DNA from: Escherichia coli
GTDB taxonomy: Bacteria > Pseudomonadota > Gammaproteobacteria > Enterobacterales > Enterobacteriaceae
Direction: 5' to 3' (one strand)
Assembly (NCBI RefSeq): GCF_029227855.1
Contig: NZ_CP074356.1
Length of the DNA: 64,000 bases
Under the pieces are notes generated by a model. That model was not told where the DNA came from, did not search any database, and was given only the letters and a program-made list of their open reading frames with translations. Positions 48,344 through 48,708 of the stretch are shown here, piece by piece. The position numbers were made by a program, and so were the translations under genes. Every line of letters starts with the position of its first letter. Within the stretch, counting starts at the first letter, position 1.

Positions 48344-48708
48344 ACCATAGACAACATGAATATTAATGTTACTATCTGGTTGAGACTGTTGATAAAACGT
48401 AAAAAGGAATGCTCTGTTCCTGCAACTGAACAGGCGTGAAACGCTATCCAACAGGATGGATACCGTTTTGTCAGCCAGTTTTATAGATCACACTTATGAG
48501 TATGCGTGTTTCATTTACGGCCAGGAATGCTGATGATGACAACATTACTACCCGTTTTCACTAAGCCTTCCCCGTTGGCGCTCAATGCTCTGCGCGCTGG
48601 TCGTATTTGCCGTTTCCTTCTTATCCCGGATGGAAGAATCCGCTGAACGTCGTTCGGCGGCAGTTGTAACACGCGTCGTTTGCTTACAGGGATTATGGCG
48701 GGTCGATT

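Follow-up and report, generated by a model that had tools for sequence, protein, structure and literature searches.

yhiY as a probable regulatory upstream open reading frame in the leader of the Escherichia coli yhiI-rbbA-yhhJ operon

Introduction

Is a short reading frame preceded by an SD sequence between yhiJ and yhiI of Escherichia coli a gene and, if so, does its peptide, the act of its translation or the RNA in which it is embedded matter for the operon downstream? The question arises from a 365-nt intergenic region within 64,000 nt of E. coli DNA (contig NZ_CP074356.1), which at its full length is called the window in the following. The upstream neighbour is DUF4049/yhiJ (46721-48343) and the downstream neighbour is the HlyD-family gene yhiI, which encodes a HlyD/MFP-type adaptor and is followed by rbbA for a fused ABC ATPase and ABC-2 permease and yhhJ for an ABC-2 permease. 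A preliminary description, made from the sequence, had considered the frame a leader peptide or small protein for this operon. The frame is yhiY, already annotated and experimentally validated and thus not new, and probably a regulatory upstream open reading frame (uORF) in the yhiI-rbbA-yhhJ leader.

48533-48646, + strand: yhiY coding sequence, 37 codons plus TGA (RefSeq CDS with identical coordinates; Pfam PF23514)
48709-53632, + strand: downstream operon with yhiI (48709-49776), rbbA (49773-52508) and yhhJ (52508-53632) (open reading frame listing, RefSeq names)

Identity of the reading frame

The SD core AGGA (48523-48526) is separated by the six bases ATGCTG (48527-48532) from the ATG at 48533, which opens a frame of 37 sense codons with the product MMTTLLPVFTKPSPLALNALRAGRICRFLLIPDGRIR, closed by TGA at 48644-48646. 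The preliminary description of this arrangement is exact to the base, and its distance of about 60 bp to yhiI agrees with the measured gap of 62 nt to the yhiI ATG at 48709. The span it had assigned, 48527-48650, begins at the first of three in-frame ATGs (48527, 48533 and 48536) and overshoots the stop codon by 4 nt. In the open reading frame listing, the frame extends mechanically to GTG 48506, giving 46 aa.

Pfam PF23514 matches the product over its full length (residues 1-37) with 103.1 bits at a cut-off of 27 (E=6e-30); no HMM for YhiY is found in NCBIfam. The peptide is 100% identical to YhiY of E. coli K-12 (b4790; MG1655 3630778..3630665, - strand), and the entire yhiJ-yhiI intergenic sequence equals that of MG1655, with no substitution at 48329-48824, whereas yhiI and yhiJ of this strain carry scattered substitutions compared with MG1655.

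Taken alone, the open reading frame is only marginally beyond chance. Of 5000 dinucleotide shuffles of the intergenic region, 4.2% yield an ATG frame that has 37 or more codons and an SD core upstream, and the region itself holds six other + strand open reading frames of at least 20 aa. It is the annotation, ribosome profiling and mass spectrometry together with the conserved start region that make yhiY a real gene. One alternative + strand frame, (MS)MRVSF..ADDD.. at 48496-48564, coincides with the invariant leader described below and stays open over 18 or more codons in each taxon, reaching 57 codons into ..FLLIPDGISR* in the Citrobacter freundii complex, and the invariant columns cannot discriminate between the two frames; it was not adopted, being without SD and with published initiation profiling in favour of the second AUG of the yhiY frame. 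A - strand open reading frame of 72 aa (48511-48729) has no support.

As a rediscovery of a validated small gene the frame adds nothing by itself, while it does represent a true small open reading frame picked from raw sequence alone.

Translation and properties of the peptide

Beyond the sequence, from which the preliminary description had no further evidence available, yhiY possesses a RefSeq annotation and a Pfam family and has been recorded by ribosome profiling and mass spectrometry. Initiation ribosome profiling with Onc112/retapamulin places the translation start at the second AUG, equivalent to 48533 (Weaver et al.). In a tagging study 36 of 38 candidates were detected, both failures being open reading frames other than yhiY. 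Furthermore, native YhiY has been detected intact by top-down and also by DIA and PRM mass spectrometry, at an abundance of about 1000-3000 copies per cell (PMC12529367). Codon-level conservation and ribosome occupancy had been named as the observations on which the frame would stand or fall; occupancy is documented, codon-level conservation between genera is weak.

The peptide of 4.15 kDa is basic (pI 11.8) with a GRAVY of 0.49. Upon inspection of its sequence no transmembrane helix by an AcrZ-like criterion was observed, as the longest uncharged stretch comprises 10 residues and prolines are scattered, and the sequence shows no run of regulatory codons. The first ATG (48527) is not conserved and is replaced by ACG or TTG elsewhere, while the ATGATG is conserved.

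Promoter and leader

48348-48375, + strand: sigma-70-type promoter, TAGACA, 16-nt spacer and TG-extended TACTAT (promoter scan)
48376-48492, + strand: lineage-specific extra leader segment of about 115 nt between the -10 box and the conserved leader
48382, + strand: start of the yhiI 5' UTR as cloned, presumed transcription start (primer of Adams et al.)
48494-48532, + strand: nearly invariant leader of about 39 nt including the SD AGGA at 48523-48526 (pattern GCGTGTTTCATTTNNGGCNNGGANNGCTGANGATGAC)
48686-48706, + strand: invariant segment ACAGGGAUUAUGGCGGGUCGA upstream of the yhiI start with the weak SD GGCGGGU

The promoter is the sole + strand promoter-like site in 48100-48900, and its arrangement T[AG]GACA-16-TA[GC]TAT is common to the loci of Escherichia, Citrobacter, Salmonella, Klebsiella and Kluyvera. 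A duplication of the promoter upon insertion of the yhiL-yhiJ island downstream of it was considered and rejected, as the promoter is present in a single copy in the window. The primer for the fusion of the yhiI 5' UTR and open reading frame begins with GAGACTGTTGATAAAACGTAAAAAGG, which maps to 48382, 7 nt from the promoter end (Adams et al., 2021); the design of this construct is the basis for taking 48382 as the presumed transcription start.

Of 5426 complete E. coli genomes, 4282 carry a single copy of the segment between the -10 box and the conserved leader; folded alone, this segment forms a long imperfect hairpin. Nissle 1917 and other B2 strains, E. albertii and all other genera lack the segment and possess about 11-25 nt in its place. 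The subsequent leader is of a different nature: each of the 23 Enterobacteriaceae loci has the pattern GCGTGTTTCATTTNNGGCNNGGANNGCTGANGATGAC before yhiI, and the 58 more distant loci with yhiI homologues all lack it; within Escherichia, 3 of its 39 positions are polymorphic. Equally, CAGGGA and GCGGGTC in the segment directly upstream of yhiI are invariant in 15 aligned genomes, the Kluyvera counterpart being ACAGGGAAC; this segment presumably resembles the CsrA consensus.

RNA 3' ends and Rho-dependent termination

48666 (MG1655 3630645) and 48644 (MG1655 3630667), + strand: Term-seq RNA 3' ends (Adams et al., Supplementary file 3)
48517-48621, + strand: C-rich, G-poor stretch inside the open reading frame, candidate Rho loading (rut) region (sliding 60-nt windows)

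One RNA 3' end is located at -43 of yhiI, 20 nt after the yhiY stop, with a second end at -65 given on another sheet (Adams et al., 2021). For the -43 end, upstream and downstream reads number 762 and 101 without and 792 and 351 with bicyclomycin, with a Rho score of 3.34 ('Yes') and an intrinsic-terminator score of 2.14 at a threshold of 3; the row is flagged 'uORF' and yhiY-yhiI is listed as a validated, uncharacterised candidate uORF pair. In addition, the rhoR66S mutation raises expression of a lacZ fusion of the yhiI 5' UTR and open reading frame by more than 2-fold, and yhiI itself contains a called, significant Rho region (Adams et al., 2021). Most transcripts thus end just past yhiY, in part by the action of Rho, so that only about 13% of reads reach yhiI, as compared to about 44% with Rho inhibited. 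No intrinsic terminator was found on the + strand of the yhiY locus by the terminator scan, and the hairpin at the stop codon has no U-tract after it.

Within 48517-48621, C makes up 30-35% and G 17-23% of 60-nt windows with a C/G ratio of up to 1.9, versus G-rich sequence with a ratio of 0.36-0.6 downstream at 48650-48950. By this base composition the stretch is a putative rut site, and the equivalent stretch of Kluyvera- and Klebsiella-type leaders is also pyrimidine- and C-rich.

Conservation across genera

The comparison comprised 23 species genomes of 8 genera plus metagenome contigs, with 15 genomes in the structure and column alignment. Promoter, uORF and yhiI are syntenic in the 23 genomes, and in E. 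coli the yhiY-yhiI unit is kept in 5412 of 5426 genomes, also in strains without yhiJ and yhiL such as Nissle 1917. On the other hand, a Salmonella-like contig has kept the leader and an intact uORF with the yhiI operon gone, an orphan arrangement which points to a function that does not require yhiI.

The promoter, the leader of about 39 nt, the SD and the initial 3-4 codons (MMTT) hardly vary from Escherichia to Klebsiella and Kluyvera, with leader, SD and AUGAUGACNACAU invariant throughout the 23 genomes. The remainder of the uORF varies extensively. Its length amounts to 3, 4, 15, 37, 45 or 46 codons, the last in a frame-shifted form, and to 73-98 codons where it overlaps yhiI; Kluyvera-type loci have just 3-4 codons, and the 37- and 45-codon forms differ by 24 nt in frame. 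Escherichia, C. amalonaticus and Pseudocitrobacter translate the 3' block as FLLIPDG and the C. freundii complex as SFLSRME; the corresponding motif F[LP]LIP[DE]G is kept in the former three, degenerate in Salmonella, frame-shifted in the C. freundii complex and missing in Klebsiella, Raoultella and Kluyvera. The frame-shifted C-terminus characterizes every C. freundii-complex sequence obtained (7 species genomes and metagenome contigs). No nascent-peptide (arrest) motif is conserved across genera, the universal residues being MMTT only.

PF23514 stays under its cut-off with Citrobacter, Pseudocitrobacter and Salmonella and has no match whatever among the uORF products of Klebsiella and Raoultella. 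A search with YhiY among 1.84 billion representative proteins recovered 3 relatives, all Escherichia-like, one of which looks as if C-to-T changes had damaged its sequence. In Escherichia, the first 10 codons of yhiY are invariant, the middle third is fast-evolving with non-synonymous changes and the C-terminal third exhibits mostly synonymous third-position changes (6 of 9, p=0.04). These synonymous changes and the in-frame length difference of 24 nt hint at some selection on the peptide. Outside Escherichia, codon-position counts gave no consistent coding signature, and none in Pseudocitrobacter and the C. freundii complex. These comparisons suggest translation initiation, more than the peptide, as the signal that is conserved.

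Predicted RNA structure

48502-48513, + strand: 5' strand of helix P1, AUGCGUGUUUCA (predicted, RNAalifold)
48665-48676, + strand: 3' strand of helix P1, UGUAACACGCGU (predicted pairing with 48502-48513, RNAalifold)
48613-48636, + strand: conserved 3' nucleotide block UUUCCUUCUUAUCCCGGAUGGAAG, predicted hairpin P4 (alignment and fold)
48640-48660, + strand: hairpin over the yhiY stop codon, CCGCUGAA-CGUCG-UUCGGCGG, with UGA at 48644-48646 (in every fold)

The long-range helix P1 is predicted in 23 of 23 genomes at an unchanged position, its duplex energy being -13 to -17 kcal/mol, with a different partner sequence in Klebsiella and Kluyvera. One of its pairs occurs as three types (UA 8, UG 4, CG 3), and the pairing survives the Escherichia polymorphisms at 48668 and 48674 (UA/UG, GC/GU). 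P1 is part of the minimum free energy folds of a Kluyvera-like leader and K. oxytoca and not of that of the single E. coli sequence. In the 3' block, ATCCCGGA is invariant among 15 genomes and the closing pair of P4 covaries (AU 6, UA 4, UG 4). The hairpin over the stop codon contains two pairs with double-sided changes (GC 8, GU 5, AU 2 and CG 9, UG 5, UA 1), and in the C. freundii complex the frame-shifted open reading frame ends at a UAG in its loop.

Over all proposed helices 97.9% of cells are paired as compared with 36-44% upon sliding of the partners, most columns being invariant. The covariation score exceeds that of all 500 shuffles; double-sided pairs amount to only 4, a count matched by 162 of the 500. 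Energies of single-sequence folds are no better than those of shuffles (z -0.92, +0.26 and +0.52). At a permissive threshold, Rfam 15 yielded no family, with two chance-level matches (E at least 0.69) far under the gathering scores. A pseudoknot between AUCCC (48623-48627) and GGGAU (48689-48693) is possible; both segments are invariant and as such outside the reach of covariation.

Model of regulation

The initiation region, the first 3-4 codons and the RNA helices are conserved and the peptide is not, so that the act of translation, rather than the peptide, seems to be the regulatory signal. We lean, by a modest degree, towards a model in which the translated uORF, acting mainly in cis, sets Rho-dependent read-through into yhiI. 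Transcription from the conserved promoter yields a yhiY-yhiI-rbbA-yhhJ transcript, on which ribosomes initiate at AUG 48533 with the peptide being made and accumulating. Initiation and transit of ribosomes on yhiY would affect the fold of the leader and the access of Rho to the C-rich RNA at 48517-48621, with involvement of the long-range helix P1, of the stop-codon hairpin and of base pairs formed by the SD region. Translation of yhiY and leader fold would then jointly set read-through into the genes of the ABC-type exporter. A simple version, in which the ribosome masks the rut site, is not general, because a uORF of 3-4 codons cannot shield a rut site downstream. Against a predominant action in cis speaks that YhiY, at thousands of copies and intact in top-down analysis, is more than expected for a by-product peptide.

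A bolder extension, possible and somewhat doubtful, considers the leader a structured attenuator RNA of about 180 nt across the Enterobacteriaceae, in which initiation at the uORF, not the peptide, toggles the fold and gates the ABC-type exporter via Rho access. With similar reserve, Escherichia, Salmonella, Citrobacter, Pseudocitrobacter, Klebsiella, Raoultella and Kluyvera may be proposed as the taxa that share such an attenuator; its core would tentatively comprise the leader strand, the SD and AUGAUG with the first 3-4 codons, plus the long-range helix that reaches a site about 35-45 nt upstream of yhiI. The invariant ACAGGGAU (48686-48693) is possibly a candidate site for the binding of a factor. 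Furthermore, the orphan copy that persists after loss of yhiI hints that the 5' fragment, once released, may have a role in trans as well.

The abundance of the intact native peptide (PMC12529367) is equally the starting point for a different explanation, namely that YhiY acts mainly in trans as a small protein, for example by modulating the YhiI-RbbA-YhhJ exporter or a different partner; yhiY would then merely be transcribed along with the operon as its first gene, with the attenuation downstream being unrelated to yhiY translation. Conserved synteny with yhiI, the intact frame in the contig without yhiI, the inclusion of YhiY in Pfam as a protein family and, within Escherichia, the invariant N-terminal codons and the synonymous C-terminal changes would fit such a role. 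The PF23514 scores, however, indicate a peptide not conserved beyond Escherichia, its C-terminus is frame-shifted in the C. freundii complex and the uORF is reduced to 3-4 codons in Kluyvera-type loci; with a fast, non-synonymous middle third, no stretch hydrophobic enough for a membrane helix and just the three Escherichia-like relatives in the large protein search, a mainly trans-acting protein appears unlikely. Quite unlikely is also that the RNA, as a structured leader or a stable small RNA derived from the 5' UTR, constitutes the functional unit, by sensing a signal or by binding to a protein or a second RNA, with translation being incidental or merely modulating the RNA. Such a unit would account for a nucleotide conservation that exceeds and ignores the frame, with an invariant leader and a 3' block read in two frames, for the retention of P1, P4 and P5 with some covariation and far more paired cells than with slid partners, for the orphan leader kept without yhiI and for the stable 5' fragment observed by Term-seq in E. 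coli and by Northern blot in Salmonella (PMC2916834). It is countered by the lack of an Rfam family, statistically weak covariation and unremarkable fold energies, by robustly documented yhiY translation and protein accumulation, and by the SD, its spacing and AUGAUG, which themselves belong to the best-conserved features, as would follow if translation were important.

The short leader open reading frame, the hairpins and the RNA 3' end just downstream are also reminiscent of a classical attenuator of the trpL/hisL type, where ribosome stalling at regulatory codons chooses between antiterminator and intrinsic terminator. This option is extremely improbable and effectively already refuted by the missing terminator: besides the absence of an intrinsic terminator on the + strand and of a U-tract after the stop-codon hairpin, yhiY has no run of regulatory codons, the published intrinsic score is below threshold with a positive Rho call (Adams et al., 2021), and the genes of the operon specify a transporter instead of a biosynthetic pathway. 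Finally, yhiY might be a chance open reading frame without function of its own whose translation is noise, a view to which the equivalents in shuffled intergenic regions, the several other small open reading frames overlapping yhiY and the codon-position statistics of Pseudocitrobacter and the C. freundii complex lend themselves. We regard it as very improbable, given that SD, spacing and start codons are invariant across 8 genera, the frame is retained in nearly all E. coli genomes and translation and accumulation are documented.

The preferred model, a translated uORF acting mainly in cis, leads to specific experiments, as the comparative pattern of an invariant initiation region, 3-98 codons, two frames and retained helices defines concrete mutants.

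Relation to known systems

In tnaC-tnaAB, tryptophan-induced ribosome stalling blocks Rho loading beside the stop codon, and TnaC function depends on conserved nascent-peptide residues. Like tnaC, the yhiY locus has a short leader open reading frame with a candidate rut region close to or at its end, and Rho-dependent termination within the spacer that precedes the structural genes; it differs from tnaC in having no cross-genus arrest motif and a uORF of down to 3-4 codons.

A close parallel is mdtU-mdtJI, as whose analogue yhiY-yhiI has been listed as a candidate (Adams et al., 2021, eLife 10:e62438). In both, the 5' UTR of an efflux operon contains a small uORF that has been validated, a Term-seq 3' end follows within less than 200 nt and transcription is terminated prematurely by way of Rho; yhiY belongs to a handful of validated uORFs adjoining a Rho-dependent 3' end. 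The mdtU system has been shown to depend on translation of its uORF and on spermidine, whereas no start-codon mutant or inducer is known for yhiY; equally, the C-terminal peptide of MdtU is conserved in at least 17 genera, while the YhiY peptide is poorly conserved between genera.

Other literature on yhiI bears little on the leader. A riboswitch-prediction paper naming yhiI was set aside as irrelevant, its site being 6.6 kb away, and papers on changes in yhiI expression upon exposure to butanol or to chlorophene plus norfloxacin gave no insight into it. In Salmonella Typhimurium, a processed yhiI 5' UTR fragment, 'sRNA6', has been detected by Northern blot as a short, stable RNA with a 5'-RACE-mapped start at a predicted promoter (PMC2916834). 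It was described as a non-coding RNA candidate with the embedded open reading frame not considered. The Salmonella leaders compared here are those of S. diarizonae and one Salmonella-like contig; by its position upstream of yhiI, 'sRNA6' occupies the place of the yhiY leader and corresponds to the E. coli 5' fragment ending at 48666.

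The yhiY reading frame and its translation

The short frame between yhiJ and yhiI is the already known yhiY, represented by a RefSeq annotation, a Pfam family and three experimental papers. The preliminary description, which took the first of the three in-frame ATGs (48527, 48533 and 48536) as start coordinate, accurately reported an AGGA six nucleotides ahead of ATG 48533, 37 codons and an end about 60 bp before yhiI (the gap between the stop and the yhiI ATG at 48709 is 62 nt):

48523-48526, + strand: Shine-Dalgarno (SD) core AGGA, followed by six bases and ATG 48533
48533-48646, + strand: yhiY, 37 sense codons (MMTTLLPVFTKPSPLALNALRAGRICRFLLIPDGRIR), TGA at 48644-48646

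The frame is flanked upstream by yhiJ (DUF4049, 540 aa, 46721-48343) and downstream by yhiI (HlyD-family, 48709-49776), followed by rbbA and yhhJ. Taken alone, the ORF is only marginally improbable by chance; when the 365-nt intergenic region is dinucleotide-shuffled, 4.2% of the shuffles contain an ATG frame that has an SD core and is 37 codons or longer. The region also holds six other small + strand ORFs.

The intergenic region is present in 5,412 of 5,426 complete E. coli genomes, where the annotation reads 'yhiY: protein YhiY' and the annotated CDS, once mapped, equals 48533-48646; the MG1655 counterpart is b4790 (3630665..3630778, minus strand). With 23 substitutions in 1.8 kb the window is not MG1655, but the two agree at every base of 48329-48824, a stretch covering all of the yhiJ-yhiI intergenic region, so that experiments done in MG1655 are directly applicable. 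The dedicated Pfam family PF23514 'YhiY' is matched with 103 bits (cut-off 27). yhiY is translated from the second AUG (48533), as seen by initiation-complex ribosome profiling (Weaver et al.; tagging detected 36 of 38 candidates, and yhiY was not one of the two that failed), and its peptide accumulates, native YhiY having been found by top-down, DIA and PRM mass spectrometry at about 1000-3000 copies per cell (2025 proteomics, PMC12529367). Ribosome profiling, proposed as a check in the preliminary description, was thus already in the literature with a positive outcome, and the suggested leader peptide or small protein of the yhiI-rbbA-yhhJ operon is supported as the annotated, translated yhiY. 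That the frame is a chance ORF is very improbable.

Promoter, transcript ends and Rho termination

The yhiY frame is transcribed from a conserved promoter, and most transcripts stop soon after it, with Rho partly responsible.

48348-48375, + strand: promoter (TAGACA, 16-nt spacer, TG-extended TACTAT), sole promoter-like site of the region
48517-48621, + strand: C-rich, G-poor stretch within the ORF (C/G up to 1.9), G-rich beyond

The 5' UTR start given by the cloning primer of Adams et al. corresponds to 48382, 7 nt past the promoter-like site. Term-seq in the same study (bioRxiv 10.1101/2020.07.18.207399; eLife 2021) placed a 3' end at MG1655 3630645, equal to 48666, 43 nt ahead of yhiI and 20 nt beyond the yhiY stop. 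Reads upstream/downstream of this end were 762/101 without and 792/351 with bicyclomycin; its Rho score is 3.34 ('Yes'), its row is flagged 'uORF' (upstream ORF) and its intrinsic-terminator score of 2.14 is below the threshold of 3, and another sheet lists a second 3' end at -65 (48644). A yhiI 5' UTR+ORF lacZ fusion was more than 2-fold higher in rhoR66S, and yhiY-yhiI stands among the validated, uncharacterised uORF candidates (Adams et al.). A sequence scan of the region found no intrinsic terminator on the + strand; the C-rich stretch is an obvious candidate for Rho loading. In Salmonella Typhimurium, a transcript of about 132 nt seen by Northern, with its 5' end mapped by RACE, has been described as 'sRNA6' or as a processed piece of the yhiI 5' UTR (PMC2916834).

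Conservation between genera and variation within Escherichia

Among yhiI orthologues (one genome per species, plus a metagenome scan with the leader pattern), promoter, ~39-nt leader, SD and AUGAUGACNACAU are essentially invariant in 23 of 23 Enterobacteriaceae loci, covering Escherichia, Citrobacter, Pseudocitrobacter, Salmonella, Klebsiella, Raoultella, an Enterobacter sp. and Kluyvera, and were found in none of 58 loci with more distant yhiI homologues. ATG 48527, the first of the three, is unconserved, which backs 48533 or 48536 as the start. Past AUGAUGACNACAU, the frame is unconserved across genera in species genomes and metagenome contigs. Conservation of the frame across Enterobacteriaceae was the other check put forward earlier; at codon level it is weak between genera.

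Length of the yhiY frame in the compared loci
37 codons: E. coli, E. albertii
45 codons: C. amalonaticus, Pseudocitrobacter, S. diarizonae; middle differs, end similar (F[LP]LIP[DE]G)
46 codons: all C. freundii-complex sequences obtained (7 species genomes and metagenome contigs)
73-98 codons: Klebsiella, Raoultella, Enterobacter sp.; in the species genomes reaches 67-131 nt into yhiI
15 codons: one metagenome contig
3-4 codons (MTT*, MMTT*): Kluyvera-type leaders

In the C. freundii complex, a 1-nt length difference brings the conserved nucleotides TTCCTTCTYATCCCGGATGGAA into another frame (..SFSSRMESPAE*). PF23514 matches Escherichia peptides only, and among 1.84 billion representative proteins searched there were three relatives, all Escherichia-like.

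Within 25 Escherichia haplotypes, polymorphic sites number 0/30 in codons 1-10, 3/39 in the leader and 18/51, mainly non-synonymous, in codons 11-27, while in codons 23-37 third-position sites make up 6 of 9 variable sites (p=0.04). This site pattern suggests some constraint on the peptide in this genus; no such codon-position signature was found in Pseudocitrobacter and the C. freundii complex. Natural disruptions, namely an IS1A insertion truncating the 5' part of yhiY in E. coli E423 (L083, 792-1598) and, in two metagenome contigs, a break after codon 32 by insertion or rearrangement (L118) and a 1-nt frameshift (L150, ..FLLIPDSRMEESAERR...), indicate that yhiY is dispensable in at least some strains. 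Escherichia sp. E1V33 (L003, 2324-2460) has an extra C at codons 13-14 (CCCCC vs CCCC), which shifts yhiY into a frame of 45 codons whose end lies 39 nt ahead of yhiI; the frameshift is either real and specific to this lineage or an assembly error in the homopolymer.

Predicted structure of the leader RNA

RNAalifold on 15 leaders predicts five helices (P1-P5):

48502-48513 with 48665-48676, + strand: P1, long-range helix
48519-48525 with 48596-48602, + strand: P2, SD-proximal GGCCAGG with GCUGGUC
48534-48547, + strand: P3, small invariant hairpin across the start codons
48613-48636, + strand: P4, hairpin, conserved 3' block
48640-48660, + strand: P5, stop-codon hairpin

In the alignment 97.9% of cells are paired, vs 36-44% with slid partners, and three-type covariation is seen in P1, P4 and P5. 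Since most columns show no variation, double-sided changes are limited to four pairs, a number that shuffles also reach. The P1 duplex (-13 to -17 kcal/mol) is kept in 23 of 23 genomes; Klebsiella and Kluyvera have another P1 partner sequence, in which every difference faces U (U-A to U-G), and Escherichia polymorphisms at paired positions are mostly GC/GU or UA/UG. Fold energies of the leaders are no better than those of shuffles, P1 is not in the single-sequence MFE of E. coli, and an Rfam search of the leader region returned no family. The structure is plausible, unproven.

By eye, the pyrimidine tract UUUCCUUCU (48613-48621) has as alternative partners the yhiY SD AGGAA (48523-48528) or GGAAG (48632-48637), the latter forming P4, and may be a candidate SD/anti-SD switch; Kluyvera-type leaders have AGGAU opposite AUCCU, an apparent compensatory change.

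Proposed mechanism of the uORF

On balance, we lean towards a cis model in which yhiY is a regulatory uORF whose translation would set Rho-dependent read-through into yhiI-rbbA-yhhJ. Ribosome initiation and transit on yhiY would act on the leader fold and on Rho access to the C-rich RNA, and these would determine the level of read-through. The pattern of conservation speaks for translation itself, more than for the peptide, as the conserved signal, because the initiation region and helices are invariant and ORF length and frame are free. The abundance of YhiY, the synonymous-change pattern within Escherichia and the retention of an intact uORF after loss of yhiI in one contig speak for a trans-acting small protein, which we consider unlikely. 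A function centred on RNA, as structured leader or 5'-derived sRNA, is likewise an unlikely account. A 4-codon uORF is too short for the C-rich tract, which argues against simple masking of a Rho loading site (rut).

The classical attenuator with an intrinsic terminator was rejected as hardly credible, terminator and regulatory codons both being missing. The tnaC-tnaAB operon is subject to Rho attenuation under uORF control. Like it, mdtU-mdtJI is a uORF-controlled Rho attenuation system (Adams et al.), and yhiY, in its putative regulatory role, would be closest in function to these two. Both are marked by uORF-translation-dependent downstream expression and a conserved nascent-peptide motif, whereas in our comparison such a motif is not conserved across genera in yhiY. 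That the yhiY leader is a distinct structured, initiation-sensing attenuator is possible, if doubtful; the remaining novelty is the uncharacterised leader architecture.

Neighbouring elements

An extra segment of about 115 nt (48376-48492) separates the -10 box and transcription start from the conserved leader. Present, in single copy, in only 4282 of 5426 E. coli genomes, it folds by itself as a long imperfect hairpin (GAGACUGUUGAUAAAACG...CGUUUUGUCAGCCAGUUUU); it is missing from Nissle 1917 and other B2 strains, from E. albertii and from all other genera, which have ~11-25 nt there.

A Salmonella-like metagenome contig (L164, ~1480-1800 in pattern-match orientation) keeps the conserved promoter and leader together with a uORF that is intact over 43 codons (MMATLLPLFRVSTSF...HIPDGNLR*), the hairpin at the stop codon and the 3' strand of P1. 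It diverges directly past GGGATTACGGCG and has no yhiI-rbbA-yhhJ operon; yhiN lies upstream, while the opposite strand carries nikR, acpT and yhhT. This orphan leader is a hint that the region may have a role apart from yhiI.

A second frame, (MS)MRVSFTARNADDDNITTRFH* (48496-48564, + strand), begins exactly at the invariant leader start, with an in-frame AUG (AUGAGU or AUGCGU) in every taxon and invariant columns. It is also present in the C. freundii complex (L007-L013), with 57 codons ending ..FLLIPDGISR* at the canonical UGA, and has neither an SD nor a published initiation signal.

The invariant ACAGGGAU (48686-48693) lies 16-23 nt ahead of the yhiI AUG and could, by likeness to the CsrA SELEX consensus RUACARGGAUGU, be a candidate CsrA site; more GGA motifs occur at 48524, 48629, 48633 and the yhiI start AUGGAU (AUGGA 48709-48713).

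The paralogous DUF4049 genes yhiL and yhiJ (44870-48343; L001 1-1116 and L082 among the compared loci) make up an island that is variable; in strain 120899 the homologue of yhiL is a frameshifted pseudogene. Nissle 1917 lacks both genes and keeps promoter, yhiY and yhiI, with yhiM directly upstream of the yhiY promoter; the promoter-yhiY unit thus belongs with yhiI. On its right-hand side the island adjoins the -35 box directly.
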